64,000 nucleotides of DNA from a virus: positions 1 through 64,000 of the IMG/VR virus record IMGVR_UViG_3300030104_003872, one strand, 5' to 3'. The notes beneath the pieces are model-generated. The model saw nothing but the letters and a program-made list of their open reading frames with translations. It searched no databases and was not told the DNA's origin. The first letter of the stretch is position 1; every line of letters starts with the position of its first letter. Shown one piece after another: positions 29,814-46,406 of this stretch. The position numbers and the translations under genes are program-made.

Positions 29814-29939
29814 GTGCTAGTGTGCGACTACTGTCAAGAAACGTCTATCTCCGCTCCTTATATGACTCATGACATTTACTTAAAGACATTGGGACTATGC
29901 CCCGTATGTGGGAAAAACGGAAGTGTAAGAAATGTCTGA
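29814..29939 (+). CDS. Small Zn-ribbon protein (41 aa, not in ORF track)
   Basis: GTG start; CDYC...CPVC; overlaps the terminase start. Confidence 0.5.
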   Translation: MLVCDYCQETSISAPYMTHDIYLKTLGLCPVCGKNGSVRNV

Positions 29940-31434
29940 TATACTAAGAGGATTTAATTTAGAGCGTTCAAGAACAGATTTTAAGCATTTTTATGAATGG
30001 GTTGGTTATGTTTGGGGCGACCACATAGGCGAATGGGATAAATTGTATCGTGATAGGCAAGAAGCCAATGTTCACCGTGTTTGTATCATTGCTCCGCGTG
30101 ACCACAGTAAGTCAACAACCTTAAGAATGGTAATGTTGCATCAATGCCTATTCAATACATGGCGAGACAAGCCTTTTACTATATGGTTGTTCTCTGCGTC
30201 TAAAGAATTGGCCGCTAACAGGCTCGAAGAAATACGAGGCGATATGATGCGTCATAGAGAACTTAGAAAGTTTATTGATATGCGAAGGGGTGGAAAACTT
30301 AACTTAAGATTCACAAATGGGGCATGGATTAAGGCTACCGGTATAGGTTCTGCTATTCGTGGTGAACATCCGGCTTGTATTGCTATGGATGACGTACTCG
30401 ATGATACAGGAGACATTACCCCCGAATCCACTAGGCATTGGTTTAGAAAAAAGATAACACCGATGCTTTCTCCCGGAACTTGGATGTATTGTGTCGGCAC
30501 ACCAATGGGAATGACTGATTTATACCACACCGAAATGCTAGAGAACCCTGCTTGGAAAACATGGCTCGGTTCTGCTTTCCCCAATTGGGATGAATGGAAG
30601 TCTGACCCCGATGGTGTGGATTTAGAATGCCTATGGCCGGAACATCGGTCACTAGACTTCTTGATGGAACAAAAACAGGCTATGGGGGATTTAGCATTCG
30701 TACAAGAATATCTTTGTAAGGTTGTGGATGAAGATGCTCAAGTTTTTACTAGGTACGATACGCGAGCACACTTAGAATCAACCGATATAATGATGACAGG
30801 TAAAGAATTAGATGGAAAATACGCCATAGGCTTTGACCCTGCACATGGATTGGGAAGAGACTATTCTGTAATGGTTGTTGTTAGGCAAGATAAGGATGGT
30901 GACCTTCATGTTGTTGATTTATGGAGACGTAATGATTTTCCCCCTGCGAAGCAGGTCGATGAGATTTTGTCTATGTGTAAAAAATATGATAATCCGGCTT
31001 TTGCTTGCGAAGATGCGGGATTCCAAAGGCTCTATGAACAATTATTGTTAGAAAGGGGGGCAATGGTGGACTTTAGACCTTCTAAGGTAAGTAATAAGAC
31101 ACTAAAACAGGCACTATTGAATAGGTTGCGTGTTTGGTTTGAACAACAGAGGATTCACTTTCCATTTGGGGATGATAAAACTAGAAGAAACATGAACATC
31201 ATCTTAGAAGAATTAGACCACCATGTATGGAAGCAAGGCGAGATTATGGACGTTGGGAGACACAACGATACAGTAATGGCTCTTGCACACGCAGTTGACC
31301 AGTTTTATTCGTGGGATAGGGGAGCACCTGTTGCTACCGGAAAGATTGAATCAAGTGGTTGGCTTCGACCGGATGGTGAATCTAAAGCACCAAGATATAG
31401 CAGACCGCAGACAGGACGCTACCGCATACTTTAG
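29932..31434 (+). CDS. terL: Terminase large subunit
   Basis: Walker A APRDHSKST, IRGEH..IAMDD Walker B, VGTP motif III, QEYLC, RNase H-like GFDPA..DYS and HNDTVMA. Confidence 0.95.
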   Translation: MSDILRGFNLERSRTDFKHFYEWVGYVWGDHIGEWDKLYRDRQEANVHRVCIIAPRDHSKSTTLRMVMLHQCLFNTWRDKPFTIWLFSASKELAANRLEEIRGDMMRHRELRKFIDMRRGGKLNLRFTNGAWIKATGIGSAIRGEHPACIAMDDVLDDTGDITPESTRHWFRKKITPMLSPGTWMYCVGTPMGMTDLYHTEMLENPAWKTWLGSAFPNWDEWKSDPDGVDLECLWPEHRSLDFLMEQKQAMGDLAFVQEYLCKVVDEDAQVFTRYDTRAHLESTDIMMTGKELDGKYAIGFDPAHGLGRDYSVMVVVRQDKDGDLHVVDLWRRNDFPPAKQVDEILSMCKKYDNPAFACEDAGFQRLYEQLLLERGAMVDFRPSKVSNKTLKQALLNRLRVWFEQQRIHFPFGDDKTRRNMNIILEELDHHVWKQGEIMDVGRHNDTVMALAHAVDQFYSWDRGAPVATGKIESSGWLRPDGESKAPRYSRPQTGRYRIL

Positions 31435-31637: not shown

Positions 31638-31876
31638 TAGGCGGAGATATATGGGCTAAATGCGTGATTTATGGCCTTCTATTATATACTAAGGCCGTAT
31701 TTCACCATTTGCTGATATCGGATATTGGTGTTGTCCTTCGGGGCTTCGGACGAAAGCATCTGAACATAACAGGCTAGAATTAGCCTTCCGAATGCTTTGC
31801 CGGACACAAGATGGAAGGCGAATGGAATAAACAAACCAATCGGGCAAATAATCAACATCTGAAAGGTGAAGAAGCA

Positions 31877-32314
31877 ATGGCTAAGGCTAAGGCTAAGGCA
31901 CTATATCAGATGGATGCGGAAGAAGCGATTGCTTCGTTCAATAGTACCCGTGCTGACAACAGTAAGGGATTGGGCAAAGCAATAGTGCATAAGCCCCGAA
32001 TGCGTAAGGCATCCGGCAGTCATGTTATGATTGTTGATTTGTCTAAACTGCCTAAGGGAAGCACGGTTGAACACCATCTAGGCTTGGCAACAAGTAAGGT
32101 GAATGGGAAACCTGCTAAATATGCTTGCGTGTGTCTAACACACAATAGAAGCGTACTATGCACAACACGCCATCAGGCAACCTTCGGGGCAGTCTTTACT
32201 GCCCTTAAGGACGCTAGGACACCGAAGCAACTGATTCAGTCTAAGGGATTTACCCTAACTGATGGAATCGGTTGGTGTGATGGTTGTGTGAAGGCTTCAT
32301 TAGCATCTGTCTGA
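31877..32314 (+). CDS. Small basic Cys/His protein, paralog family member 1
   Basis: Start MAKAKAK after AAAGGTGAA; CVCLTH...WCDGC; distant similarity to 33403, 34261 and 41112 proteins. Confidence 0.75.
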   Translation: MAKAKAKALYQMDAEEAIASFNSTRADNSKGLGKAIVHKPRMRKASGSHVMIVDLSKLPKGSTVEHHLGLATSKVNGKPAKYACVCLTHNRSVLCTTRHQATFGAVFTALKDARTPKQLIQSKGFTLTDGIGWCDGCVKASLASV

Positions 32315-32498
32315 AATGTGTCTTGCCACTATTAGGTGAAGTGGGCTTCCGTAATATGCTAGATATGTATGCGTCAATGAACAGTCAATCAGACTAACCA
32401 AACGATACCCAAGATTAGCACCTGTACAGGATGGATTTCAATGGCTATATCCCGCCGTTAAATCCTGTATAGTTTGAAGCCCCTTCCCACACGAAACC

Positions 32499-32651
32499 AT
32501 GATTTTGAAAAGGTATTTTATTGAATGGCGTGATGGAACAATAACCGAAATTAGCATTGATGAATTGAAGCGATTAGATGAATCAGGATTCCCGAAATCC
32601 ATGCTTAATTTCATGGAATATCGGGCGTTTAGGAAGTGGTTGAAGGATTAG
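32499..32651 (+). CDS. Small hypothetical protein (50 aa, not in ORF track)
   Basis: MILKRYFIEWRDGTITEISIDELKRLDESGFPKSMLNFMEYRAFRKWLKD*. Confidence 0.55.
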   Translation: MILKRYFIEWRDGTITEISIDELKRLDESGFPKSMLNFMEYRAFRKWLKD

Positions 32652-32700
32652 GCCGAAAGGCCACCTTCTTCCCTTTTTTTTGTGTTTTTTCAGATTTTTT
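32651..32700 (+). terminator. Hairpin plus long T-tracts
   Basis: GGCC-GAAA-GGCC followed by three runs of 6-8 T. Confidence 0.65.
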
Positions 32701-32738
32701 GAATCTACCGCATAAAAGATGGTTAAAGCCTTCGGTCC

Positions 32739-32835
32739 GCCCCTGTGAGAGAACAAAGGTCCGGAGAAAAAAGGTCAGGAGAAAAAGGTCTGGAGAAAAA
32801 GGTCACGCTGACAAAGGTCAGCCCCTGTGAGAGAA
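32739..32835. repeat. Tandem AAAGGTC(N)GGAGA repeats flanked by direct GCCCCTGTGAGAGAA copies
   Basis: AAAGGTC occurs five times in 32755-32819 at ~14-15 nt period; the 15-nt flank occurs at 32739 and 32821. Confidence 0.85.
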
Positions 32836-32890
32836 AACACGAGACGCCACCCATGATGACGCCTCGCTTACGTTAGTCCTCTGTCTCGAT

Positions 32891-33079
32891 TCAATTCATC
32901 TCAACAAGTGTCTGAATTAAGCATTGCTCCAGTTGTTGCGGGGTCATCTCTGCGTTTATGCCGAGGTCTATTGGTGTTCTCACTAGAGTTGTTATTACAC
33001 CTTCCTGACGCCCGTCGTCTCCAACGACTGCGTGTTGCACGATTTTCGCGGTCACTTCTCCTATCTTTATTTTTCTCAT
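32891..33079 (-). CDS. Small hypothetical protein
   Basis: Own TATA (TATATATA ~33135) and GAGG RBS. Confidence 0.55.
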   Translation of the reverse strand: MRKIKIGEVTAKIVQHAVVGDDGRQEGVITTLVRTPIDLGINAEMTPQQLEQCLIQTLVEMN

Positions 33080-33402
33080 TTCATTTCCTCCTATGGGCTT
33101 TCCGCCCTACCTCCTCATGGAAGCCATAGTATATATACTTTGTGTATTTACGACCTCCACCTGAGAACTCTTTCTCGGCTCGGGGTGAGGCCCCCAAAAA
33201 GTAGTGTCGGGGAGAGAGAGGCTCGGGGAGAGGCCCTAAAAGACGCTCTCTCGCCCGGTCCGCCCCCGAGTAGGCGTTTGAGTGCGAGTCGTGATGCCAG
33301 ACCGCCCCTCCGAGATGTCGTGGCTGAGTCGTACGTTTCTCCGGAGACCGCAATGTTTATAACCCCCTACCCCTACAGCGAGGTAGGCCAAGAGGCCGGG
33401 AG

Positions 33403-33750
33403 GTGAAAAATCTGGAAACTGAGAATTACTGGGAGAACTGCGAGAGAAAGACAGGAGCGGCGCTCGGAAAGTTGGGAGTCAAGACCGCCAAGAGTATTGG
33501 CGTAAAAGGAGCATGGACTCTAAAATACCGAGGCAAGGCAAAAATACTCGTTGGTTGCATGAGGAGAGTTGAATCCGAGTGGGCTGACAAGAGTATTCTG
33601 AACGAGAAAAAGGACAGAGTTGCTGAGCACGTTACAGTCTGTGAGCACGGAGTGGCAGTTGGAGCATCCACGAGAAAGGTTGCGATAGAGCTGGCTAAGA
33701 AATCCGAGCACTGGTGCGAGAAGTGTGCCGCGAGAACCGCCGTCCTTTGA
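33403..33750 (+). CDS. Small basic protein, paralog family member 2
   Basis: GAWTLKYRGKA..VGC..HVTVCEHG..VGASTRKVAIELA...WCEKC. Confidence 0.8.
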   Translation: MKNLETENYWENCERKTGAALGKLGVKTAKSIGVKGAWTLKYRGKAKILVGCMRRVESEWADKSILNEKKDRVAEHVTVCEHGVAVGASTRKVAIELAKKSEHWCEKCAARTAVL

Positions 33751-34260
33751 GACGCGACGTAAATCCAATGACCCCCGAAAGGGGCGAGGATGTACTCTCT
33801 GGGGTCACGACTCTCTAGTATTGAGGCTCGACCCTATTTGCACAAAGGTCGGGGGGTCACGACTCCGCCCCTTCTCGACCCTAAACGCACAAAGGTCAGA
33901 AGCCTCCGGGTCCGCCCCAGAGAGAGAAGGCTCGATTCTCACTCATCTTAACCCCTAACCCGAGAACTCGAGCGTTTCTCCGTGTGCGGGCGGGCGAGCG
34001 AGTACTCAAATGTATGACATAAAAGGACCCTGAGCCGACGGGTCACGCCCCACGACTCACTGCTCATCACGACACGCATCTCAGGAGAGGAGCACGTTTT
34101 TTTAGTGGGAGCACAGGTCACCAGAGCCCCCCTACTCTACACGAGCGGACCCTAGAAGGCTTGAGCCCCTCAGGAATCTCGTGGGTGATGAGCTCCGGCA
34201 GGTATTTCTCCCACCAGAGCCTTTACGTCATCTCGAATAACTATCTCGGGGATAGAATAC

Positions 34261-34668
34261 TCAGACGCTCGCATCCTTGATGCTCTGTCTTGATTTCTCA
34301 CACCAGATGTGAGCCAGTTTGCATAGCTCGATTGCTTTCTTTCTCGATGATGCTCCCATCACTGACCCATAGTCTGTGACCGCAACATGAGTTGGTGCAA
34401 CCATCTCGCCATTTACGAGAATGGTCATGCCTTTGGTCGCTTCGGTAACTTGCTCATCCGCGTTCTCCACGAAAATGCAACCGACCCGACATCCAGCCTT
34501 CCTTCTCATCTTCAAAGTCCATGCTCCGGCTCTTCCGATGGTTCTCGCAGTCTTGGCTCCGTCCTTGCCGAGATGTGCTCCAGTTGAAACTGTTGCTCCA
34601 TCCCAATACATGGTCGGGGTTTTCTCTGCTTTACTGCTCTTCTTAGTGCTCTTACTAGTTTTGCTCAT
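34261..34668 (-). CDS. Small basic protein, paralog family member 3
   Basis: GAWTLKMRRKA..VGC..HVAVTDYG..MGASSRKKAIELC...WCEKS. Confidence 0.8.
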   Translation of the reverse strand: MSKTSKSTKKSSKAEKTPTMYWDGATVSTGAHLGKDGAKTARTIGRAGAWTLKMRRKAGCRVGCIFVENADEQVTEATKGMTILVNGEMVAPTHVAVTDYGSVMGASSRKKAIELCKLAHIWCEKSRQSIKDASV

Positions 34669-34902
34669 AAAGTTCTCCTCCTTGTCTCCAATACGTGTCT
34701 CCGAGTCACGGTAAGGTTCTCATTCAATGTCATTCTCATCGTCCGCCCTACATGACCAGATAGAAGTTATAGGATATAAAGTTTTCGGACTCTTGAGTTA
34801 GACCGCCCTCACCGTGAGAGTAGTGGAGAAGTCGTAATGTTTTCACTCGAGTTGTCGATGCCTACGTAAAAGAGAACAGGGAGGCAATTCTCCGCCCCTG
34901 TC

Positions 34903-35331
34903 TCAATCTCTTCTAGTTTGACCATATAGCCGAGATTCAAATGCTTGCTCGGCTTGTTTCTCTAGTCTCTGTACTTCTGCGTGCTCGTCAATTTTCTCTA
35001 GTACCTCTGCCACATCTTTCTCGGCCTGTCTCTTATTGTATATCTCCCAAACTTTGTCGGTTACGTTTCTCTTAACCATTTCTCCGAAGTGTCTCCATTG
35101 TCCCTCGTTTATGATATCTCTAGTCTTGTCATCAGTCAATGACCCAAGACCCATGTGTGATAATTTCTCCATTAGAGAATCTATTACGACCGGACTGTCA
35201 TGGAGTTTATCGTACTCTATTGAGTATATTTTGTCTATCTCATTTATTGTGAGTACGTCATCGGTATTTCTCCGGAGGTCTAATCTCCAACCTCTGCTGA
35301 AATAGGTCCATTTTATCTCAGAGTATGACAC
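34903..35331 (-). CDS. Hypothetical protein
   Basis: 142 aa ORF downstream of a boxed promoter. Confidence 0.6.
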   Translation of the reverse strand: MSYSEIKWTYFSRGWRLDLRRNTDDVLTINEIDKIYSIEYDKLHDSPVVIDSLMEKLSHMGLGSLTDDKTRDIINEGQWRHFGEMVKRNVTDKVWEIYNKRQAEKDVAEVLEKIDEHAEVQRLEKQAEQAFESRLYGQTRRD

Positions 35332-35478
35332 CTATCTCCACCAACAGTCGAAATGTTCAGGCTCAATCGTTTCCTTCTCGGACTTGGTGGCTCCTTTCTT
35401 AACGAGAACCACTCGCCCCTTAAAGAGTTTATTAGCCAACTCTTTTGTTATCTCATATTCATTACTTCTCAATTTCAT
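35332..35478 (-). CDS. Small hypothetical protein (48 aa, not in ORF track)
   Basis: MKLRSNEYEITKELANKLFKGRVVLVKKG...FDCWWR*; AGGTGA RBS; first gene after the 35551 promoter. Confidence 0.55.
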   Translation of the reverse strand: MKLRSNEYEITKELANKLFKGRVVLVKKGATKSEKETIEPEHFDCWWR

Positions 35479-35672
35479 TTCTCTATTTCACCTTTCCTCG
35501 GCCTTCCGGCCTACTCTGAGGATGGAAGTCATAGGATATAAACATTTCTGACTCTTGAGTTGTCGCGTGTAGCGTAATAATTTACTCGAGTTGTCGATGA
35601 CTACACAAAAGGTCTTGCTCTTGACGACTCCGCCCCAACTCTACCGCGTGAGGCAAAGGGGGTATCTCGCAA

Positions 35673-36485
35673 TCACTCGTAATGCGGAGAATCCGCGTAC
35701 TCGTAAAGACCAGTTATAGGTTCGACCTTATAGAAGTGCTCTTTTGCACAGACCCATCCGGTCGGTGTATATCCCTCGGGATAAGTCGAACTAACTGTCT
35801 CGTCACCGCCTAGAGATTCCCAATCCGGCTCCCATTGTGCTCCATTCGCTCGCCTGTCTTTTATCTCTTGTAACCATTGTATTCTCTTAAGTTCTCTGAG
35901 AACGGCATAGGCTTCTCGGAATGTATTAAGTGGTCCGAGGAAAGCATCGTGGCTCACAATAGAGCGATACCATCCGCCCTCCTCTGGTCCGCCGTATGCT
36001 CTTACTTTCTCGTACCTGCTCACATATATTTGGTCGCCGTGATTCTTCTCCCAATAACCTTCCTCGGGGAAGAAATCGTACTCACCTTCTTTGAGCAGAT
36101 ATAGTTTCTCCATACCTGAGCCAGCGTAATGCCATCTCTGATAGTCCCACTGCTCTTTGCGGTACTCGTAAAGTGTAACGAGCCAGTCGCCGTTGATACT
36201 CTGATATTTATCTCCTATTCGCTCAGGAAGACCATTTTCGTCTTGTTCTCTGCAATATTGCTCAAACGCCTGTTGCTCAGTCTGATGTCGAATTCTCTTC
36301 TGCTTGTGCTCACGCCTTGACTCGCTATGCTTTAGGTCATAGACCCAAGCACGAGTGGATAGCAATGTTCTCGCTAAACCGGTCAGTTCTGCATTCTCTT
36401 CAAAACTTCTCTTTTCGTCGTATAATTCTTTCTCTTTCTCGTAATCTGTCATATTTTTCTCACCTCCCTTATGGTCTGACTCCAT
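35673..36485 (-). CDS. Hypothetical protein (Tyr/Trp/Glu-rich)
   Basis: Contains YGGPEEGGWY motif; probable start MTDYEK. Confidence 0.65.
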   Translation of the reverse strand: MESDHKGGEKNMTDYEKEKELYDEKRSFEENAELTGLARTLLSTRAWVYDLKHSESRREHKQKRIRHQTEQQAFEQYCREQDENGLPERIGDKYQSINGDWLVTLYEYRKEQWDYQRWHYAGSGMEKLYLLKEGEYDFFPEEGYWEKNHGDQIYVSRYEKVRAYGGPEEGGWYRSIVSHDAFLGPLNTFREAYAVLRELKRIQWLQEIKDRRANGAQWEPDWESLGGDETVSSTYPEGYTPTGWVCAKEHFYKVEPITGLYEYADSPHYE

Positions 36486-36503
36486 TTCATTGTATTCTCT
36501 TGA

Positions 36504-36860
36504 TTATAACTCATTAACTGCATCTCTTAATTCGACTTCATTGGCTATTCGAGTTGCTTCTCGATGTGCCTTTAATCTCCGGATGTAACTCCTATCTTCT
36601 TTCTCTAATGTATCGAACTCTTCACCTGCGAATCTCGCATAGTTGGTCAATAATGCGTGGAGATTAATACGATGCACTCCGCAACTATATCTCATTAGTT
36701 TTAACGAGTGCCTATCTCCCTTCATGGGAGATGATTGCATCTCTAATAGTTCGACCTGTAAGTCAAACTCTTTCATTTTCTCTAGTAACTCTTTCTGTAA
36801 CTCAACTGCTCTAATCATAGAGTTTATGAGTTCCATTTCTTCATCCTCCGTTTCCGCCAT
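36504..36860 (-). CDS. Hypothetical coiled-coil protein (leaderless)
   Basis: ATG about 23 nt after the TATA of the boxed promoter at 36898. Confidence 0.65.
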   Translation of the reverse strand: MAETEDEEMELINSMIRAVELQKELLEKMKEFDLQVELLEMQSSPMKGDRHSLKLMRYSCGVHRINLHALLTNYARFAGEEFDTLEKEDRSYIRRLKAHREATRIANEVELRDAVNEL

Positions 36861-36989
36861 GTAGAGGTATAGGGGTTCTAGGTATTAAACCTTTCTAACT
36901 CCTGAGTATCCTCAGAGAATGATAGATTTACTCGAGTTGTCGATGGGTTGGTAAAAGAGAATAGGATTGTGAATCTCCGCCCCACACGA

Positions 36990-37466
36990 CTAGTAATTAA
37001 AATCGGTCAGGGGAAAGTCATTCTCTTCGACTATCCTTTCGTTGTTCTCAAAGAACTTCCTCACATGCTCAAGACCTATCAGATGGGCTCTACCGGACTT
37101 ACTTCTATTGTCGATAACTGATGGGTCATCTGCAAACTGCTCGTTCAGTATGCTCAGATATAATCTCTTAGCCACATCATACTCTTGAGGTTTCCATAAT
37201 AAGACCTCTTCTGTCTCGACATATCTTTGCTCAGTTCTAAATCGAGTGTTGATTCGCTCTAATTGCTCATCATCCATGATTTCTCTGCTTCTGAGCAGAA
37301 TAAAACCATGCTCATGATGACCTAGTTCCTCGTCATAACTCTTATTCACAGACCATATTAAATCTCTTAATTCAGATTTCTCTTCACCAGTTCTGCTCAT
37401 CCATGAACGAGCAAGTGATTGTGGTGTCGTGTGTCGCCACTCTGTACGTGACCTGACCAAAATCAT
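36990..37466 (-). CDS. Hypothetical protein
   Basis: 158 aa ORF in a minus-strand cluster. Confidence 0.55.
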   Translation of the reverse strand: MILVRSRTEWRHTTPQSLARSWMSRTGEEKSELRDLIWSVNKSYDEELGHHEHGFILLRSREIMDDEQLERINTRFRTEQRYVETEEVLLWKPQEYDVAKRLYLSILNEQFADDPSVIDNRSKSGRAHLIGLEHVRKFFENNERIVEENDFPLTDFNY

Positions 37467-37546
37467 CCTGTCCTCTGATATTTTATACTCGTATTCGTCT
37501 ATCTCTATTCACCTCCTTTAGACTCCAAATCTCCCATCTATGAATC

Positions 37547-37885
37547 TCATTGCAGAGAACTTTCCTTCTCTTGCTTTTGCATCTCGTACATCATCTTTCT
37601 CCCTTCTATACGAGCCTTCCACATAGAGATACCAAAACTCATTGCTTGTTGTCTCTTTTCCATATCCTCATCAAACGGGTCCATACCCATTCTCGCGGGT
37701 AAGACCATAGTGGCGTCGCATAAGTCGCAACATCTCGAATCGAAATCTTTTGGGTCAGCAAGGAGTGGGTAGGGATTATTACCCATGTATTCTCCGGTCT
37801 TGAATAATAACTCGTTGGTATGAGGGTGTCTTGGTCCCTTAATCTCTTTCTTACAGAGACAACACTTAAGATTACTCTTCCTCAT
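37547..37885 (-). CDS. Zn-binding hypothetical protein
   Basis: CCLC...GNNPYPL...RCCDLCD. Confidence 0.65.
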   Translation of the reverse strand: MRKSNLKCCLCKKEIKGPRHPHTNELLFKTGEYMGNNPYPLLADPKDFDSRCCDLCDATMVLPARMGMDPFDEDMEKRQQAMSFGISMWKARIEGRKMMYEMQKQEKESSLQ

Positions 37886-38069
37886 CGTTGATTGCTCCTT
37901 CTAATAGTCGTCGAATGACACTAGGGTCAATAGCAGACTCTTTGATAAGAGCCATAAACTCTTCGGCCGTTTGACCTGTTGCTACCGTTTCGCCTGTCTC
38001 TTTGCTTACAACTCTGAATAAAGGAGCATCCGCACCCGCATTCTCTGTCTCTACATCAATTACGGTCAT
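37872..38069 (-). CDS. Small acidic hypothetical protein
   Basis: Coupled to 37885 gene; GGAG RBS. Confidence 0.55.
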   Translation of the reverse strand: MTVIDVETENAGADAPLFRVVSKETGETVATGQTAEEFMALIKESAIDPSVIRRLLEGAINDEEE

Positions 38070-38390
38070 ACTTATGCACTCCTAGCCTCATACTGTTTTT
38101 TGGTCAGTCCATACCTTCTCAGGTAATATTTGTCGTTCATCTCTTCAATCATATTTCTCATCTTGTTGCTCATCTTCTATTCGCTCCTGTTTCATGTGGG
38201 CTCGCCACGCTAATATCTCTATATGTATTTTACTCATCTACTTTCCTCCTTATCCTTAAATACTCATGGCAGGGCTCGCAAAGAGTTGCACTCTCACCTG
38301 CCCGACCTGAATGGAAATCAGTCGGCATATTACCGACAACCCACCATGACTCGGCATGGAATAAGTCGTCACCACATTGGTCGCAATAGG

Positions 38391-38522
38391 TCATTCTAAA
38401 TCATACTCCTCATATACCCACTCTGGGGTTTCTAGTCGAAACTTGAATCTGGTCACCAAGAGTTTATTCCGTAGTCGGGAATACTTAACTCGGGTGATGT
38501 TTCCATCGTCGCCGTCCGCCAT
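38391..38522 (-). CDS. Small hypothetical protein (43 aa, leaderless, not in ORF track)
   Basis: MADGDDGNITRVKYSRLRNKLLVTRFKFRLETPEWVYEEYDLE*; directly after the 38560 boxed promoter. Confidence 0.5.
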   Translation of the reverse strand: MADGDDGNITRVKYSRLRNKLLVTRFKFRLETPEWVYEEYDLE

Positions 38523-38715
38523 ATCTACCAATTATCGTCTTAGGATATAAAGGTTTTGGACTCTTGAGTTATGGTGTATTTTAACTCGAGTTGTAGGTTA
38601 TAGTAGTAAAAGGTTCGGTAGAGCACTACTCCGCCCCAACTCAAGAGTTGGAAAGGTTTATATTCTAGTTAGATGATTCCCTCATGTAGCGGAAGCACAG
38701 GAGACATCAGATAAA

Positions 38716-39417
38716 ATGAGTGAAAATGAAAACAGAGTAATTGAACAAGAGACAGAGCGTGAAGCAGGTAAGAGTATAACCCTGACCTTCACACCTATCG
38801 GAGCAATCATAGATTCCGAGAAAGAAAGCAAAGTACAAGAGCAAGATGAAAATGCAGACCTGTTCTTTATGAGAAGTATCAACACGACCTTCGGGTTCAA
38901 GATGTTGAGAAACTCATGGGATAGTGAGCACGACATCAAAGCAGGAGCAACTGAGACTAATACCAAGAGTACAAATGGACTAAGAATCGGAGATACAACC
39001 GTGACGAGTTTCATAACATCAGAGTTGGAGTGGTTCAAAGAGGCACTAATGCCTCTGCTTATCGACCAAAGTGATGTGGAGATAATCCAGACCACTAAGG
39101 AAGAGATAGTAATAGTTGAGCCACTAGGCAGATACGAGCACTTCGGTTGGGACGAGACACCAGAGTGGGCTGATGAAAGAGTAACCCTCGAATACATCGA
39201 CCTTCGTAATGGTAAGGCCTCTATTCTCGTACAAGGCGAGACAGGTTCTGACCTTCAAGGGGATGAGGTGAACGAGGCAGTTAAGGGCTACCACGATATG
39301 CTTATGAGTACCATCAGAAGTATGACCTGCACAGACGAGAATGAATATAGCAGAGATTGTAAGAGTTTGCTTAAAGTGGAGTCTCATAGAGTTTGCGACA
39401 CATCCTTCTTGAATTGA
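38716..39417 (+). CDS. Acidic hypothetical protein
   Basis: 233 aa, Glu/Asp-rich; boxed promoter at 38639. Confidence 0.7.
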   Translation: MSENENRVIEQETEREAGKSITLTFTPIGAIIDSEKESKVQEQDENADLFFMRSINTTFGFKMLRNSWDSEHDIKAGATETNTKSTNGLRIGDTTVTSFITSELEWFKEALMPLLIDQSDVEIIQTTKEEIVIVEPLGRYEHFGWDETPEWADERVTLEYIDLRNGKASILVQGETGSDLQGDEVNEAVKGYHDMLMSTIRSMTCTDENEYSRDCKSLLKVESHRVCDTSFLN

Positions 39418-39535
39418 GTTCTTTGGGGGAGAGAACTTCGTAAGCCTCGGCGTGGGTAAATCTCACGCTGAGGTGAAACATCTTATGCTCTCAGTAGGAG
39501 GAACGATAGGATGACAGACCTGAAACTTCGAGGGG

Positions 39536-40735
39536 GTGATGAGAATGTCAGATGAAAGAGGATTAATACCTTACTCTAACAAAGAAGAGATGATTCTCGC
39601 TATGCAAGATTTGTCGGATGAAATGCTTAAGGTAGGTCACGATAATGTGGAAGAGTTCCTAGCACTCGTAAAACAAGAGATGTGGGATAGAGAACACGCT
39701 ATGGTGGTCACATACAATGAAGAGTTCAAAGAAAAGTGGGCTCATGTATTCGACTTATTTAACGAAGGTTGGTCTATATTAAGAGAACTATACCAAATAT
39801 GCGAGGACTATGATGGAGATAATAATTTTATCACAGAGAAGAATGAGCATCCGAATTATCCTCATTGCGAGTTAGAAAAGGCTTGGGTCGTAAGATACGA
39901 GTCATTTTTAGCAAGAGCAAAAGATATGCCTAGTCGTGGTTATACACATGAGGGACCATATGGAACTCTAGTATTCAGAGAAGAATATCTAAAAGAGTTG
40001 GATTTAGAGTCTTATTGGGCGACTACATATTCAACGGAGATAGCAAGGAGATTGGAGCCTAAAGAGAAGGACTTAAAGTATGGTCTTACTTTTGCTCATT
40101 ATCCTACAGACCCTTTCAAAGAGGAAGAGGAATACATCGAAGATTGGAGCAGATACAAATATGTTAGAGATACTAAGATAGAGGCCTTTGATAAAGTCGT
40201 ATATTTCTTGAGAAATGTTATGGTTAAGTCGGAGACAAAGGATATAAGACCTTCACAAAACGACGATTGGAAAACCAATGAGCTCAAACACTATAATCTC
40301 GAAACACATCAGTTAGAGAGACCTTTAGAGTGGAAGATAATAGAGGATGAGCAGATAGTGGGTGCTATTTACGGTAGAGGTAGGAGCGATAATAAATATG
40401 CGACTTGTTTCGACTGTGATGAAAATGGTCGAAATAGATTAGCCGTGAGAACATATTACGAGCGTGGGTATCAAGAGATGCCAGGAGCTCCTGTTCATGC
40501 TACATGCGAGTACTTTACTTGTATGAGATGTGGAAGTGAGCGTAAAGGTGGAGAACATGGAGATTTCCCTGTTGGTGGAGTTGACTTAATAGGTCAGCCA
40601 CTCTTTGCAGGTATGAGCACAGAAGAAGTATGTCGTCAATGCTCATGTTATACTACCAAACAGTACGGTGGTAGCGGAGAACGAGGAAGCGATAGGGAGT
40701 GTTGGGCTTGCTATGGAGAACCCGGTCATTACTAG
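39536..40735 (+). CDS. Hypothetical protein with C-terminal Cys clusters
   Basis: CFDC, CMRC, CRQC and CWAC motifs. Confidence 0.7.
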   Translation: MMRMSDERGLIPYSNKEEMILAMQDLSDEMLKVGHDNVEEFLALVKQEMWDREHAMVVTYNEEFKEKWAHVFDLFNEGWSILRELYQICEDYDGDNNFITEKNEHPNYPHCELEKAWVVRYESFLARAKDMPSRGYTHEGPYGTLVFREEYLKELDLESYWATTYSTEIARRLEPKEKDLKYGLTFAHYPTDPFKEEEEYIEDWSRYKYVRDTKIEAFDKVVYFLRNVMVKSETKDIRPSQNDDWKTNELKHYNLETHQLERPLEWKIIEDEQIVGAIYGRGRSDNKYATCFDCDENGRNRLAVRTYYERGYQEMPGAPVHATCEYFTCMRCGSERKGGEHGDFPVGGVDLIGQPLFAGMSTEEVCRQCSCYTTKQYGGSGERGSDRECWACYGEPGHY

Positions 40736-41111
40736 ACAGGTCTGGTGGTAGAGATACCGCCATTCCTCTCACTCTAAGATAAAAGAAAAGAGCGCTCCTC
40801 TCTCCGCCCCTTGAGAGAAGAAGGTGGTGGGTCTAGATTGCAGTATGCCTACCCAGCAATGTCTCCCCGACCCACCGAAAGGAGTATTAGGTGGAGGCTT
40901 ATCCGACTTGTTACCGCCTGTTTTAGACTCACTTCCTCGTTGCATTTCTGCCTCTTTCGAGATAAGGGTAGTGTGCGGCTCGGTTACGGTTTGGTCTACC
41001 ACCTGTTTATGTAGACTCGCCCCCTTTTTGTATGCTCCGTCATGTACCCGTTCTCATGGTGGACGGAGCCACACCATGTGGTCGTTTCGTGCGGAAGAAC
41101 GCTCGAATTGT

Positions 41112-41591
41112 CTAAGCAGTCGCTTTAACTTCTGTCTCTGTGACTTCTGTCTCAGCCTCTGCCGTTGCTTTAGCCTCTTCCTCGGCTTTCGCCTTAGCCT
41201 CGGCTAATTTCTCCACTATCTTTTGAGCCTTGTTGCTCCATGTGGCCGGATGTCTCGCTAGTTCGAGTGCCTTTTTCCTTGAAGTTGCTCCGTGCTTCTG
41301 GAGAATCTTCATTTTTAGGTCTTTTGCTCCCTTTTCGTGAGTTCCTGTGATAACGACTGTATGCTTGTCTGGTCTGTTACAGATAGGCTCGTCAGATGCC
41401 TCGGTTAAGTAAATTCTCACTTGCATACCTCCAATCTCCTGACAACCCTTCTCACGCCACAATCCTCTGATGCCGTAAAGGTCAACATTAGAGTGTCCGT
41501 GTGTTTCTGTATCTCCCTTAGACCACTTTGGGATAGGTTTCTCATCTTCTGTGGTCTTTGATTCTGATTTAGTCTCTTTCTTTGTGCTCAT
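41112..41591 (-). CDS. Small basic protein, paralog family member 4
   Basis: HTVVI...HGATSRKKALELARHPATWS; Ala/Glu/Lys tail; GAGGTGA RBS; boxed promoter 41674. Confidence 0.75.
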   Translation of the reverse strand: MSTKKETKSESKTTEDEKPIPKWSKGDTETHGHSNVDLYGIRGLWREKGCQEIGGMQVRIYLTEASDEPICNRPDKHTVVITGTHEKGAKDLKMKILQKHGATSRKKALELARHPATWSNKAQKIVEKLAEAKAKAEEEAKATAEAETEVTETEVKATA

Positions 41592-41884
41592 AACATTTCA
41601 CCTCCTCGGGGTTTCGCAGTCCTCCCGCTTCGCATATCTACAACTACATTTATCTAGTATATATAATGTTCTAACTCTTGAGTTGTGCTTGAGTTGTAGC
41701 CTACTGCCTTACTACTAGAGTAGATACTACGCGTGTAGTGAGTGAGTGCTCTTATTATTGGTAAAAGATTCGGTAGAGGTATTCTCCCGCCCGTAACTCG
41801 TGAGATGGAAACATTTATGTGCCGTCAAGATATATTAGTAGATATGTACGGTACGACGATAAGTTTTACACAGGAGGCTGAATA

Positions 41885-42313
41885 ATGAAATGCGAGGCAA
41901 TGGGGTGCGACAGCGAGGCTACGCTTATGTGTCACCAGAGTTACTTATGCGAGGGTTGTGGTGTTGAGATGGCGAAGGCGACAGGCCACGATACTCAACC
42001 TATTATACTGTCGTCTGTACTCAAAACTATGAGTGAAGAAGAAAAGGAGTTTCTTGACCCACTTACTGTTCTTGTCGATGACGAAGAGCATGACCACCGC
42101 ACATTTGATTTACAAGATGTCGGTACAATTGACCACATAGTACCTACTAATGGTTTGACCATATTCCATGAGCCTATTGTCATGGCGAGGTGCGTTCATT
42201 GTGAGGCATACGCTATCGGTCATATCAACAAGGTAGGAGGTTGGTTCGCGAGACACCAACACTACCACACGCACGCAGAGGCAAATGATGACGACTTTGC
42301 CATGCCGTCGTGA
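41885..42313 (+). CDS. Cys/His-rich hypothetical protein
   Basis: C..GC...LCEGC; CVHC...HQHYH. Confidence 0.65.
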   Translation: MKCEAMGCDSEATLMCHQSYLCEGCGVEMAKATGHDTQPIILSSVLKTMSEEEKEFLDPLTVLVDDEEHDHRTFDLQDVGTIDHIVPTNGLTIFHEPIVMARCVHCEAYAIGHINKVGGWFARHQHYHTHAEANDDDFAMPS

Positions 42314-42376
42314 GTTCAAAAACTTTATATCCTAGAATTAATTATTGGTAGTATAGCGGAAGCGGAGGAAAGTATA

Positions 42377-42943
42377 ATGAGCAAATCAGCCGAAGAAGAG
42401 TTAATAGAAGAGTGGAAAGAACCAGAGCAACCAATGGATTATCTGATTCGACAACAAGAGAATGCTATCACGCAGACCAAGTATCTATTCTACAAACTCT
42501 ATGATAAGAGTGACAAAGGATGGAGTGACGAGCAGAAAGAAGAGTGGGGTAATCATATCGACGAAAACGGTTTCCGCAAGTCGGAGTTATTCCAAGAAGT
42601 ACCTGCTCAACACAGATATGTGGTCGCTATACCAGAGACAGGCGAGTGGAAATCATTTAAGACTCGTTCCGAGGTAACACAAGACCGGCAAGGTGGAGCA
42701 ATGTACCCCTATGCTAAGTGGTCTAAGCACGAGTCAGCCCGAATGGAGGCCTATGGTGCTATGAAACTCATGAGTTTAGCGTGTTCTAAGGTCTTACCTG
42801 AGAACTGTGATGACGAGCAAGCGTATTTACGACCTTCCGACATTGAAAGAGTTGCACTTATCCTATTAGAGATTGACGCAGAGCGAAGGGAATTATCAGA
42901 GTATTACGATGAGTTAGCCCAAGAATTAGAGGTTTCAGCATGA
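42377..42943 (+). CDS. Hypothetical protein
   Basis: 188 aa; coupled to the helicase gene (ATGA overlap). Confidence 0.65.
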   Translation: MSKSAEEELIEEWKEPEQPMDYLIRQQENAITQTKYLFYKLYDKSDKGWSDEQKEEWGNHIDENGFRKSELFQEVPAQHRYVVAIPETGEWKSFKTRSEVTQDRQGGAMYPYAKWSKHESARMEAYGAMKLMSLACSKVLPENCDDEQAYLRPSDIERVALILLEIDAERRELSEYYDELAQELEVSA

Positions 42944-44571
42944 GTATTGAAGAAGAGAACCTTCCAGTTAGAGTTTCAGAAAGACTCAAGGAATTGAGTG
43001 ACACGAAAAGAAGTGAAATGAGCCTATATCTCTGGCAAGAAGGAGCAATACAGGCTTGGTCAGGCAACGGAGTTGCACGTGACCCTATTTCTGATAAACC
43101 TCTAGATGGTGATAAAGAGTTCTTTGGTATTGTCTCAGCCGTGACCGGTTCTGGAAAGACCTATGTTGCATCAGAGTGTGCGTGGGTCTGGTTACAGAAG
43201 AACCCAACCGGTAGAGTAACCGTATTGGTCCCGTCAAGAGCATTACAGAATAAGTGGAGAAAAGACATGGCCGGAGCGTTCCCCCACATGAGAATAGGTA
43301 TGATGGGTGGTGGTAGAAGAGATTTCCGACAAATATCAATAGTGACCATGAATACGGCCGCTAAAGGTCTTCCAGAGACAGACGGTGAGCATCTTATCAT
43401 TGTAGATGAGTGCCATAATATCGGTTCAGAGTTTCGACAATATGCTATTCGTAATAATTCTCATACTGCGGTATTAGGTCTTAGTGCAACTCCAGCGAGG
43501 GAAGATAGCGGTTTGACCGTTGTATCACACCTATGCGGTCCGGTCGTTTATCAATACAAGTATGACCAAGCACTCAACGACGATGTTATTATCCCGTTTA
43601 GAGTTAGGGCGGTTGCAGTTCCTCTAACCCATATGGAGCGTTCAGAATATGAAGAGATTACAAATCAGATTAGGAAAATCTCTTTCATCCTCCGTAAGCG
43701 ATATGGAGCAGGTACAAATTGGTTTGCACTCAAACAAGACCCATCAGACCCCGATACTGCTTTGACCACGTTCAAAGACCTATGTATGAAGCGTAAGAGA
43801 CTTGTAAATGAGTGTCATCTAAGATTCGAGTGCGTTGATGATATATTGAGGTTACACGAGAACAGTAAGACCATGATATTTCACGAGCGTATCAAACAAA
43901 TAGAGTGGATGCACGATAAATACCGAGGCCTATGTCCAGAGACAATACCAAATTGCGAGGACACATGGGAAGAAGTCGCTTTGACCCCACCGGACTGTTC
44001 CGAGTGGTTAGGCATGAATCCAGAGTTATATCACGGTGATATGACCAAAGGGGAAAATGATAGAGCGTTTGAGGCATTTGCCGAGGGCGATGCTAGTATT
44101 CTCTTGTCATGTAAGGCTCTTCGTGAAGGAGTTGATGTACCCTCGTGCGACTTAGGTATTATGGTGAGTGGTACTAATTCCGCTCGTGCTAGAGTTCAGA
44201 CACTTGGTCGTTGCTTGAGACGTGGAGAAGGTAAAACAGGAGCGATTGTATATTTACTCTATGTCCCAAATACGACTGATGCGAAAGGACTCGCTAATCT
44301 CAAATATGGTGGAAAACTACCCGACGGTACTATCGAATGGTGGAGATACACCCCCAACAAAGGTCTAGTTAAGTATGGTGAGGAAGAGCAACCCGAAATA
44401 CCTAAGAGGAAACCAAAAGCCGAGAAGAAGAAACATATATGTGACTCGTGTCATAAGGTCTTTCATACGGAGTCAGCATCGTTGTCAGAGAACCACCATT
44501 GCTATCCTCGATTAACCAAGACAGGTCGAAAGCCTATTGACCTTTGGGGTGATATGATTGGTCGAAAGTGA
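42940..44571 (+). CDS. Superfamily 2 helicase (XPB/Rad25-like DExH)
   Basis: Q motif (LYLWQ), TGSGKT, DECH, SAT, EGVDVP and QTLGRCLR. Confidence 0.9.
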   Translation: MSIEEENLPVRVSERLKELSDTKRSEMSLYLWQEGAIQAWSGNGVARDPISDKPLDGDKEFFGIVSAVTGSGKTYVASECAWVWLQKNPTGRVTVLVPSRALQNKWRKDMAGAFPHMRIGMMGGGRRDFRQISIVTMNTAAKGLPETDGEHLIIVDECHNIGSEFRQYAIRNNSHTAVLGLSATPAREDSGLTVVSHLCGPVVYQYKYDQALNDDVIIPFRVRAVAVPLTHMERSEYEEITNQIRKISFILRKRYGAGTNWFALKQDPSDPDTALTTFKDLCMKRKRLVNECHLRFECVDDILRLHENSKTMIFHERIKQIEWMHDKYRGLCPETIPNCEDTWEEVALTPPDCSEWLGMNPELYHGDMTKGENDRAFEAFAEGDASILLSCKALREGVDVPSCDLGIMVSGTNSARARVQTLGRCLRRGEGKTGAIVYLLYVPNTTDAKGLANLKYGGKLPDGTIEWWRYTPNKGLVKYGEEEQPEIPKRKPKAEKKKHICDSCHKVFHTESASLSENHHCYPRLTKTGRKPIDLWGDMIGRK

Positions 44572-44801
44572 GAAAATACATAGATGCGACTTAGAGATTA
44601 TTGGTTTTGATTATGACCAAAAGAAATGGGAGGTCACAGAACACCTCCGATGTAAAGAGTGCGGTGCTAGAGCAACAAAGATAGTAAAAGAGGTATATGT
44701 TCTTGACTCTTACTCAAAAAATATTAAGACATAGCCGGTAGCGACGTCTACTTGACTCAAGAGTCAGCAATGTTTATATCCTAGTTTGATATTTTGGTAG
44801 T

Positions 44802-46034: not shown

Positions 46035-46104
46035 GTAAAAAGAAATTGAGTAAAGATGGGTTAGAGATATTTGAGTTCAAACTACCATCAAAGGAGGAAG
46101 AAGA

Positions 46105-46248
46105 ATGAGTTATAAGATATTGAGATTTAGATTTGAAGGAAAAACAAGAGTAATAAAAAGAGGATTGACACTCGAAGAAGCCCAAGAGCATTGCCGTGAC
46201 CCAAAAACAAGTGGAGATGGTTGGTTCGACGGTTATACGGAGGAATAA
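46105..46248 (+). CDS. Small hypothetical phage protein (47 aa, not in ORF track)
   Basis: MSYKILRFRFEGKTRVIKRGLTLEEAQEHCRDPKTSGDGWFDGYTEE*; GGAGG RBS. Confidence 0.6.
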   Translation: MSYKILRFRFEGKTRVIKRGLTLEEAQEHCRDPKTSGDGWFDGYTEE

Positions 46249-46249
46249 A

Positions 46250-46406
46250 TATGGCTATGAGCAGAAAACATTATAGAGTAATAGCAGAGGCAATAAGAAC
46301 AAACGACGATAAGAGGAAAATGATACTAGAACTCAGTATGTTTTTCAAGGAGGATAATCCTAATTTTAACTTGAGTAAGTTTTTGGAGGCGTGTCATTTT
46401 GAGTGA
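46250..46406 (+). CDS. Small hypothetical phage protein
   Basis: MAMSRKHYRVIAEAIR...DNPNFNLSKFLEAC; GGAGG RBS; start approximate. Confidence 0.6.

Follow-up and report, generated by a model that had tools for sequence, protein, structure and literature searches.

A one-way, two-part intergenic motif at early gene boundaries in an uncultured marine archaeal virus

Why should a short intergenic motif recur on a single strand of a viral genome, whichever way the neighbouring genes face? The question is raised by the window analysed here, positions 1 to 64,000 (64,000 nucleotides) of IMG/VR record IMGVR_UViG_3300030104_003872, part of the 75.3-kb circularly assembled genome (G000) of an uncultured marine archaeal virus. 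A preliminary description had noticed about ten co-oriented AAAAG-N16-18-TCCGCCC sites and had proposed polar DNA sites in the manner of KOPS, Chi or Ter, or recombination sites. The present analysis indicates that the motif is most likely a transcription control signal carried by reshuffled gene cassettes, rather than a Chi/KOPS-like guide for DNA-moving machines. The virus is, on strong indications, a magrovirus-like virus of an archaeal host: its promoters are of the BRE/TATA kind, its starts near-leaderless and its clamp loader RFC-type. Its assembly closes through a 98-bp self-overlap within a gene-dense stretch, so that it has no known fixed end to serve as a reference point for motif polarity.

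Sequence, copies and strand of the motif

The motif consists of a left half, yAAAAGr or CAAAGGTC, and a right half, yCCGCCCC, 17-19 nt apart. All ten copies first described are real: seven match AAAAG-N16-18-TCCGCCC exactly (32714, 33238, 34868, 35607, 36953, 38608 and 40781), all on the + strand, where shuffled sequences predict 0.01, and three are variants, 33843 and 33890 reading CAAAG(GTC) and 41763 ending in TCCCGCCCG. The original list had missed a degenerate copy and a half-site array that ends in a fused copy, which are likewise intergenic and on the + strand. Every copy lies within 32.7-41.8 kb, or 12% of the genome. The copies, followed by the ordinary early promoters of the virus, are:

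32713..32743, + strand: copy 1, class I, TAAAAG-N18-CCGCCCC; convergent gap, just past the T8/T6/T6 terminator of the rightward terminase operon
32755..32832, + strand: five AAAGGTC half-sites in an array that repeats every 14-15 bp, four at 32755-32804 and the last fused to a right half, AAAGGTCAGCCCC-TGTGAGAG (fused copy AAAGGTCAGCCCC at 32813-32825); relatives have full motif copies at this position
33237..33266, + strand: copy 2, class I; divergent gap; CTCGGGGAG starts 17 nt before AAAG
33842..33871, + strand: copy 3, class II, CAAAGGTC; convergent gap; CTCGAC box 17 nt before AAAG
33889..33918, + strand: copy 4, class II; 47 nt past copy 3; CTCGAC box 17 nt before AAAG; then a conserved AGAGAGAGAAGGCTCGATTCTC
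34020..34051, + strand: degenerate copy, TAAAAG-N19-CACGCCCC; convergent gap shared with copies 3 and 4
34867..34898, + strand: copy 5, class I; 4 nt from the stop codon of leftward gene 34903-35331, upstream of leftward TATA promoter 34774-34799
35606..35636, + strand: copy 6; between leftward gene 35673-36485 and leftward TATA promoter 35536-35561
36952..36983, + strand: copy 7; 6 nt from the stop codon of leftward gene 36990-37466, upstream of leftward TATA promoter 36882-36908
38607..38637, + strand: copy 8; divergent gap; abuts the palindromic box of rightward TATA promoter 38638-38663
40780..40810, + strand: copy 9; convergent gap; homology with relatives L264 and L275 begins exactly here; a conserved structured non-coding stretch (40811-41110) follows
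41762..41793, + strand: copy 10, variant CCCGCCCG; divergent gap; abuts the box of rightward TATA promoter 41796-41822
34774..34799, - strand: example of a gene-oriented early promoter; ACTC-NN-GAGT box, 8 nt, then TTTATAT
starts 35536, 36882, 38545 and 41659, - strand: further early promoters of the same box and TATA layout
starts 38639, 41796, 44755 and 47235, + strand: further early promoters of the same box and TATA layout

The strand bias holds well beyond the window. CCGCCCC occurs ten times on the + strand of this 9-kb stretch and once in the rest of the 75-kb genome, and a two-block weight-matrix scan of the whole genome places all strong sites on the + strand at 32.7-41.8 kb, with none anywhere on the - strand. 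Five related genomes add about 30 unique sites, none on the opposite strand; a relaxed pattern yields 13, 11, 6, 8 and 5 + strand sites in five non-redundant genomes and zero on the - strand. No sites were found outside the early region in the virus or the relatives examined. Equal occurrence on both strands, the outcome that the preliminary description had set against its own proposal, is thus not what the genome and its relatives present.

Pooling with the relatives gives 44 unique sites, in which AAAG and CCGCCCC are invariant and the spacer is rigid, with 17, 18 or 19 nt between the G of AAAG and the first C of CCGCCCC in 44/44. Orthologous sites keep the length of the spacer and change its sequence; the orthologues of copy 2 in L011, L014 and L266, for example, retain an identical 17-nt spacer length. 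A CTCG box starts 13-18 nt before AAAG in half of the unique sites (22/44, peak 16-17, background 7%), and in the family of copies 5-8 a box lies 23-24 nt upstream instead of 17. Across 28 sites no hairpin is shared and MFE z-scores are close to 0 on both strands, a terminator consensus scan flags just three copies, and the motif does not show the GC-rich stem-loop directly followed by a T-run of a bacterial intrinsic terminator. As had been stated, the series begins where a GAG/CTC-free segment ends: this segment (31644-32747) spans 1103 nt, against a mean spacing of 38 nt, and stops at the first copy.

Gene boundaries, promoter geometry and mosaicism

In the gene model of this analysis all copies are intergenic, and their polarity is independent of whether the flanking genes are convergent, divergent or in tandem, which bears out the preliminary description. 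Copies stand at nearly every boundary of the small early transcription units, either beside leftward stop codons, as arrays in convergent gaps, or directly against rightward promoters. Leftward units carry a copy at their 3' end in 6/6 cases in G000 and 7/8 in L266, often 4-10 nt from the stop codon; every convergent gap holds one to three copies, and the +/+ gaps of G000 hold none. Copies 38607, 41762, 33237 and L020:11916 have no leftward gene upstream in the leftward sense, yet rightward genes follow them. A single family of four small basic paralogues supplies flanking genes to each of the three array-bearing convergent gaps; no recognisable DNA-binding fold was found in this family. Two convergent terminators flank the first copy, which also neighbours the terminase operon and the GAG-free segment.

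The ordinary promoters provide a ruler for the motif. In 7/7 of them the CTC of ACTC-NN-GAGT lies exactly 17 nt ahead of the first T of TTTATAT, and a C-rich tract (CCATCCTC, ATTCCCTC, ACCCCTAC) precedes the predicted start. In the motif, CCGCCCC lies 21-27 nt after the first A of AAAG, the place of that C-rich tract, and is followed by GAGAGAA or GAGTAGG, similar to the leaders of the ordinary promoters. The motif therefore shares with BRE/TATA-style promoters both the fixed spacing to a pyrimidine-purine start and the distance of the upstream box. It does not share the AT-rich TATA box ~26 nt before the start, a position that holds TAAAAG(A/G) or CAAAGGTC, not TTTATAT. RNA contigs from two RNA runs, which are unstranded and sparse and cannot show starts or strand, begin just downstream of the gene-oriented TATA promoters; at the 38657 promoter they begin 7 nt past the predicted start, in line with TATA geometry.

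The early region is also mosaic. Homology between relatives is patchy although their TerL proteins are 80-91% identical, homologous cassettes are arranged in a different order in G000 and in L266, and the relatives' contigs often break here. At 40778, 34888, 38638 and L266:15953 an edge of homology falls on the motif, so that a comparison of gene gain and loss breakpoints, as the preliminary description had suggested, does find several that coincide with the motif. Breakpoints are equally frequent at promoters.

Competing readings of the motif

From co-orientation beside genes of either direction it had been concluded that the sites are not simply promoters or terminators. This does not follow, since a class of rightward promoters and a terminator of leftward units would each fit most copies. 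The reading that we tentatively put ahead of the others is that a mobile regulatory cassette has the motif as its core, fixed in polarity, and that this core acts as a TATA-less rightward promoter. Under this reading, a repeated mobile intergenic cassette would delimit the small early transcription units, and a sequence-specific factor would read the motif as a second promoter class that always fires rightward. AAAG, the A-rich half, would occupy the TATA-box position of the ordinary promoters, CCGCCCC would be the pyrimidine tract immediately before the start, and transcription would begin at the purine-rich TGTG/AGAG/GAGAG after the C-tract. Rightward genes in divergent gaps would thereby gain a second promoter, and where leftward early units end, the products might be counter-transcripts or short non-coding RNAs that oppose or bound leftward transcription. 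The one-strand occurrence, the rigid spacer, the CTCG box at promoter distance, the position of the C-tract and the TATA geometry borne out by RNA contigs all favour such a promoter. So do copies 38607, 41762, 33237 and L020:11916, which precede rightward genes and have no leftward gene to end, and the class II copies, whose - strand has just T3, not a terminator signal in M. maripaludis; the intergenic repeats of halovirus HF2 offer a possible precedent. Against it, the left half lacks the AT-rich character of a TATA box, most of all in class II, a GC-rich block would be odd at the melting region, and from the majority of copies transcription would run antisense into leftward genes. In the sparse, unstranded set, none of the metatranscriptome contigs has its start at a copy, and in contigs of unknown strand 40811-40976 has no RNA cover while 40977-41140 is covered. 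A T7 run on the + strand (~34097-34103) would, in one gap, halt rightward RNA before it reached the leftward gene, the family of copies 5-8 has its box at 23-24 nt and not 17, the promoter class is absent from the rest of the genome, and the half-site array (32755-32832) has no start-site half.

Read on the other strand, the motif is GGGGCGG-N17-19-CTTTT(A), and its U4 tract would be an archaeal, aCPSF1-type termination signal, making the motif a polar terminator or insulator of leftward early units; a factor bound at the CTCG box could add a roadblock ~10 nt past the U4 tract, and the motif plus the next leftward promoter would form a composite terminator/promoter resembling the T4 PeSL. We consider this possible, although on balance doubtful. 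The lack of terminator hairpins, with MFE z-scores near 0 on both strands, supports the preliminary description, but its step from co-orientation to the exclusion of terminators does not follow. In favour stand the copies at the 3' ends of leftward units and in all convergent gaps, with none in the +/+ gaps of G000, together with the - strand tracts themselves: U4 once in class I copies and twice in copy 9, and U5/U5/U6 in the half-site array. U4 tracts are the core terminator signal in M. maripaludis, where T3 does not serve, and PeSLs are composite terminator/promoter cassettes at shuffling points. However, conservation is strongest in GGGGCGG, which keeps a fixed distance to the T-run downstream of it, and known archaeal terminators do without such a block; class II offers no more than T3; and neither the divergent-gap copies nor L020:11916 has a leftward gene that could end there. 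In the orientation that would match, the element is never used by rightward early units or by the long leftward late operons, a hairpin and T4 already serve leftward gene 32891-33079 ahead of the motif, and RNA cover of the 41112-41591 unit ends 170 nt short of copy 9.

It is unlikely that the motif is foremost the binding site of a DNA-binding protein that the virus encodes chiefly for something other than transcription, whether as a cassette-exchange junction (a recombination hot spot) or as a polar nucleoprotein site for replication, packaging or genome organisation, with orientation kept because inverted copies would harm. The invariant AAAG and CCGCCCC and the rigid spacer are what sequence-specific contacts predict, and the lone half-sites with their 14-15 bp period, the paralogues flanking the array gaps, the location of the first copy, the reordered cassettes and broken contigs, and the breakpoints at the motif would all suit this reading. 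The recombination sites proposed earlier fare accordingly: the mosaic, reordered region and several breakpoints speak for them, but no tyrosine or serine recombinase (Phage_integrase, Resolvase) was matched in the genome, where control profiles did match, and the motif lacks an inverted repeat or hairpin of the attC kind. Breakpoints as frequent at promoters, a paralogue family with no recognisable DNA-binding fold, and one site per transcription-unit boundary, which is the prediction of a transcription signal, also weigh against a binding site of this kind. A related proposal, in our estimate distinctly unlikely, is that a virus factor, bound in a single orientation at each early-unit boundary, forms a one-way barrier or an exchange point. 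Leftward RNA polymerase or the replisome might meet a polar block there, by analogy with the Reb1/TTF-I/Fob1 rDNA barriers, or the site might be a junction in an integron-like, recombinase-independent cassette system of an archaeal virus; selection would then hold the orientation although cassette genes face either way.

Strict co-orientation in all genomes examined, whatever the local gene direction, is what a KOPS/Chi/Ter-like site that steers or stops a DNA translocase, nuclease or replication fork would show. The analogy does not survive the site distribution, which largely refutes it and leaves it very improbable: the sites cluster within 9 kb of the 75-kb genome instead of spreading through the replicon, a mirror-image set exists nowhere, coding sequence holds none in the gene model used, promoter boxes and gene ends are where the sites keep, and the genome has no known fixed end as polarity reference. 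The proteins scanned included no recognisable candidate for a motor, nuclease or fork-arrest protein that would read such a site, and archaea are not known to have the FtsK-KOPS and RecBCD-Chi systems. Still harder to credit is a bacterial-type sigma promoter with AAAAG as -35, a 17-nt spacer and CCGCCCC as -10. Two boxes and a 17-19 nt spacer do resemble -35/-10 geometry, but the promoters of the virus are archaeal BRE/TATA elements with near-leaderless starts, its clamp loader is RFC-type, and its encoded proteins gave no match to sigma region 2 (Sigma70_r2) or a single-subunit RNA polymerase, the sole sigma-like match being a 94-aa HTH protein.

Known parallels and significance

A literature search found no description of regulatory signals in viruses of uncultured Marine Group II archaea; the words 'promoter' and 'motif' are absent from the founding magrovirus paper, and no paper joining 'magrovirus' with 'promoter' was found. 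We propose that the motif may be the archaeal-virus counterpart of the T4 PeSLs and the HF2 intergenic repeats. The latter (IR class I/II, also present in other Haloferacalesviruses) are conserved promoters with an essential conserved start-site motif; HF2 makes long counter-transcripts, and several repeats lie at the 5' ends of mapped transcripts (PMC8707807). The present virus, like HF2, is an archaeal tailed virus, and its motif, like the HF2 repeats, is short and intergenic-only, combines conserved blocks with variable positions, and is conserved in sequence and position among relatives. Unlike the HF2 repeats, which have clear AT-rich TATA boxes and measured activity (PMC8707807), it has AAAG(G/A) at the TATA position and a GC box as its start-site block, and its copies are one-way whatever the gene direction. 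T4-type PeSLs are likewise small and conserved, and separate small early genes of unknown function within a hyperplastic region, where close relatives differ by gene gain, loss, replacement and reordering at the motif (PMC2839356, PMC4122927); the present sites, too, coincide with points where a hyperplastic early region has undergone indels, replacement or reordering. A PeSL, however, joins a bacterial sigma-70 early promoter to a stem-loop terminator and is co-oriented because its genes are (PMC2839356, PMC4122927), whereas the motif has no stem-loop, accompanies archaeal promoters and keeps its orientation beside genes of either direction.

Class I copies resemble aCPSF1/FttA U-tract terminators in placing a - strand U4 ~30-35 nt past leftward stop codons, but known ones need no conserved GC box at a fixed distance (PMC8716108); class II copies offer U3 only, and some copies follow no leftward gene. 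Integron attC sites, too, are co-oriented and bound an array of small cassettes whose genes face either way with their own promoters; the motif is far shorter and has no imperfect inverted repeat, folded strand or integrase gene.

What emerges for one clade is a map of its early region that can be put to the test, with a BRE/TATA class that carries a palindromic box and a second, strictly one-way element. If the motif is a TATA-less promoter, it would imply programmed counter-transcription of early genes in an archaeal virus and would offer archaeal genetics a compact factor-dependent promoter; as a polar terminator or barrier, it would instead represent a new kind of archaeal termination signal. 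Under either reading, the motif marks the joints where these abundant ocean viruses swap accessory genes.

Genome organization and the gene-oriented promoters

The full IMG/VR contig is 75,290 bp long, and the window comprises its first 64 kb. The contig ends overlap by ~98 bases (window 1-98 = genome 75192-75289); because the first 98 bases recur at the contig end, the assembly ends are arbitrary, and the record, although listed as linear, reads as a closed (circular or permuted) assembly. The main landmarks are:

2.8-28.2 kb, leftward: structural genes, including a tape measure, collagen-like fibres and a weak portal match
29932-31434, rightward: large terminase (TerL)
42940-44571, rightward: helicase
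After the structural block, rightward: Mre11-like exonuclease and RFC-type clamp loader

The genes between terminase and helicase, hereafter the early region, are small, lack any family match, and run leftward in about half of the cases. Short transcription units follow one another along this region, and each has a boxed TATA promoter of its own. The gene-oriented module comprises an ACTC-NN-GAGT palindrome, 8 nt including a BRE-like AAA, and TTTATAT, with a CTC-to-TATA distance of 17 nt in 7/7 cases. A conserved GGTAG/ATGGCGG lies 23-30 nt beyond TTTATAT and in several cases holds the start codon, making those genes near-leaderless. This arrangement, kept in relatives, has archaeal promoter geometry with near-leaderless messages, and the boxed archaeal promoters at 33340-47262 together form a regulon. 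Examples are:

34774-34799, minus strand: boxed promoter
38639-38663, plus strand: boxed promoter
44755-44779, plus strand: boxed promoter
47235-47259, plus strand: boxed promoter

Unstranded RNA contigs from two metatranscriptome runs, in which absence of cover is uninformative, cover the 5' parts of genes adjoining TATA promoters, and those starting at 38691 and 38700 fit an ordinary-promoter start near 38684. The region's most abundant RNA contig (38691-39423) spans gene 38716-39417 and stops 6 nt past its stop codon at GTTCTTTGGGGG, while the next gene (39536-40735) is without cover, a pattern suggesting that RNA 3' ends form efficiently after gene 38716-39417, at a short T3 tract or a hairpin.

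Promoter geometry, near-leaderless messages and the RFC-type loader all agree in supporting an archaeal virus. Searches found no TFB, TBP, sigma region 2 or T7-type RNA polymerase encoded in the viral genome, no tRNA (ARAGORN), no near-identical phage record, and no relative of the clamp loader among cellular genomes. Few of the encoded proteins are recognisable as DNA-binding; among them is a candidate regulator, a 94-aa protein at 62860-63144 whose helix-turn-helix is Sigma70_r4/HTH_23-like (Pfam E 7e-6). At 50965-51330, rightward genes are separated by an AT-rich gap of 350 nt that contains TATA-like boxes and two direct repeats, each present twice (TTTTATTCTTT...CTACnGAAATAATAA and ACArGGGCGTAGTA...TTTTA). 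This gap may be a replication origin or a further control region; the GGGCG...TTTTA units in it run opposite to the motif described below and have a much shorter spacer.

A co-oriented two-part motif and its distribution

The motif joins an AAAG-containing left half (yAAAAGr or a variant) to the C-tract yCCGCCCC. The ten copies in the preliminary description (copies 1-10, at 32713, 33237, 33842, 33889, 34867, 35606, 36952, 38607, 40780 and 41762) are all real, although only seven match the exact pattern (all plus strand, against 0.01 matches expected) and the other three are variants of it. Further sites comprise a degenerate copy (34020-34051), a fused copy (32813-32825) and four additional AAAGGTC half-sites. 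Scanning the whole genome with a two-block weight matrix places every strong site on the plus strand at 32.7-41.8 kb, with nothing comparable on the minus strand, which upholds the co-orientation noted earlier. The motif is thus confined to 12% of the genome, stays outside coding DNA throughout and lacks a mirror set. It occurs in two forms, class I (yTAAAAG(A/G)) and class II (CAAAGGTC), the right half of the latter often starting GGTCC. Among 44 unique pooled sites, the spacer is 17 nt in 23, 18 nt in 13 and 19 nt in 8, and the commonest bases 3' of the C-tract are TGTG or AGAG.

Contigs with TerL 80-91% identical carry the motif, always in terL orientation. Plus/minus counts with a relaxed pattern, whose plus counts include a few chance matches, are 13/0 in the genome under study and 11/0, 6/0, 8/0 and 5/0 in the related contigs L266, L270, L020 and L275; ~200 kb of related sequence showed no inverted copy. 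Between orthologous copies the spacer changes in sequence but not in length, and both boxes are retained (33237 = L014:13790 = L266:13826; 40780 = L264:2768). In more distant relatives (TerL 56-67% identical), the motif was not found and gene order differs; these give no comparison, since structural genes follow terL and the motif is absent. Pattern scans of IMG/VR with both classes returned >100 single chance matches, with several sites together only in the known relative, and the strict class II pattern matched four unrelated bacteria, once each, among cellular genomes.

The copies are not hairpin terminators: folding of 28 sites on both strands gave z-scores around zero and no common structure, and a terminator consensus scan flags only three of them. 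An attC-like site was rejected, there being no fold and neither integrase nor resolvase in the virus. Nor does the motif correspond to a known RNA family: Rfam gave no match at gathering level and, at relaxed thresholds, one chance-level match around the arrays.

In the genome under study, a copy lies at the 3' end of every leftward unit, in two cases 4 and 6 nt away from the stop codon. Convergent gaps, of which there are three, each hold one to three copies, and the three divergent gaps hold one each; the tandem rightward gaps at 39.4, 42.3, 44.7 and 47.2 kb hold none. The C-tract directly abuts the rightward-promoter box in 2/3 divergent gaps, a junction repeated at L020:11916. Of the units in L266, 7 of 8 leftward ones are followed by the motif, but only 1 of 3 rightward ones is preceded by it.

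The four paralogous gaps of copies 5-8 (34867-38637) share a conserved ACTCGAGTTGTCGATG box 6-8 nt left of the motif. On the minus strand an AT-rich element lies 8 nt beyond this box, so these gaps may each contain a second leftward promoter in a distal position. By eye, two likely small genes running leftward can be read from the sequence under longer plus-strand shadow ORFs, at 35345-35494 (minus, 49 codons) and 38401-38523 (minus, 41 codons); translation of the latter would begin at its promoter's ATGGCGG, without a Shine-Dalgarno.

Mosaicism and neighbouring elements of the early region

Despite near-identical TerL, the early region is mosaic: homology to relatives is patchy, and homologous cassettes are ordered differently in the genome under study and in L266. 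Relatives' contigs often end here, and the source assembly is tangled at a repeated promoter. Several homology blocks begin or end at the motif (40778, 34888, 38638 and L266:15953), and others end at promoters. No cassette flipping between relatives was found, the sole inverted matches being those between two convergent paralogues. They belong to a family of four small basic proteins:

31811-32314, plus strand: small basic paralogue
33403-33750, plus strand: small basic paralogue
34261-34668, minus strand: small basic paralogue
41112-41591, minus strand: small basic paralogue

The four share a C-terminal G-A-S/T-S/T-R-K-x-A-I/L-E-L motif, and each 3' end faces a convergent gap with motif arrays. 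The family, a candidate for binding the motif, has ~14 representative relatives and no Pfam or PHROG match; its structural model is of middling confidence (pLDDT 67) and matched no known fold (Foldseek E > 1; VIA-align best Z 3.8).

Flanked by copy 9 and the stop codon of gene 41112-41591 is a conserved structured non-coding element of ~300 nt (40811-41110), for which indels rule out a coding role. Comparison with the related contigs L263 and L264 reveals compensatory changes in at least two helices, in an arrangement that looks pseudoknot-like. The element, a possible novel ncRNA or long 3' UTR, folds on both strands (-63.8 vs -70.6 kcal/mol, three sequences); one G-U vs C-A difference hints at the minus strand. 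A metatranscriptome contig covers part of it (40977-41140). A pattern scan with its conserved loop gave no match beyond the two contigs already known.

Several other features mark this stretch. Positions 31644-32747 (1103 nt) contain neither GAG nor CTC, which recur every 38 nt on average across the genome; directly beyond 32747 their density jumps from ~15 to 84 per kb, and as far as 48 kb it remains between 40 and 70 per kb. A plus-strand T7 run (34097-34103) lies in a GC-rich convergent gap, 45 nt past the degenerate motif copy. Any rightward RNA would end at this run and not reach the leftward gene; the run is not conserved in L014 or L266. Directly after leftward gene 32891-33079, a strong 13-pair hairpin followed by GTTTTCTCTC (32839-32867, minus) resembles a bacterial intrinsic terminator in an archaeal virus, and its arms are kept in L012 and L014.

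Possible functions of the motif

The motif probably acts in cis in transcription, as a signal to which a specific factor binds. More specifically, we tentatively favour a rightward promoter without a TATA box. The AAAG half would occupy the TATA position, because the CTCG box keeps the same distance to AAAG as to TATA: CTCG begins 13-18 nt before AAAG in 22 of the 44 unique sites (peak 16-17), against a 7% background. CCGCCCC falls 21-27 nt downstream of AAAG, where several real promoters have a C-rich tract, just before the predicted start. The GAGAGAA or GAGTAGG after the C-tract resembles the leaders of real promoters, and the 17-19 nt window fits the TATA-to-start tolerance. Such a promoter would account for the copies before rightward genes and for the T3-only class II arrays; it also predicts that antisense or short non-coding RNAs arise where leftward genes end. 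A leftward terminator or insulator is somewhat unlikely. On the minus strand, class I reads GGGGCGG-N-CTTTT directly past stop codons, in M. maripaludis the core of archaeal terminators consists of U4 tracts (PMC8716108), and the motif with the next promoter would mirror a PeSL, the T4-type terminator/promoter cassette; polarity would then arise because leftward units share one mobile cassette. However, aCPSF1 does not bind U3 (PMC8716108) and class II copies hold only T3, the fixed GC box is left unexplained, some copies have no leftward gene upstream, and the element is absent at rightward or late leftward gene ends. The RNA contigs favour neither the rightward promoter nor the leftward terminator.

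A non-transcriptional binding or recombination site, in which inverted copies would be selected against, is unlikely, and there is a minority chance that the motif belongs to a new polar barrier or exchange system. The likeness to KOPS, Chi or Ter put forward in the preliminary description now appears very improbable, given the confinement to 12% of the genome, the exclusion from coding DNA and the lack of a mirror set. A sigma-type promoter is scarcely credible, because the viral promoters are archaeal.

The closest known systems are the intergenic repeats of the halovirus HF2 and the T4 PeSLs. The HF2 repeats act as promoters in which a conserved block at the start site is essential, and HF2 also makes long counter-transcripts (PMC8707807). 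HF2 is a virus of the same type, with repeats measured as promoters; PeSLs share the motif's evolutionary role. Unlike both, the motif has no TATA box or stem-loop and ignores local gene direction. As a rightward promoter, it would owe its polarity to function: this half of the genome would be read rightward, and the leftward early islands would be the units to oppose.
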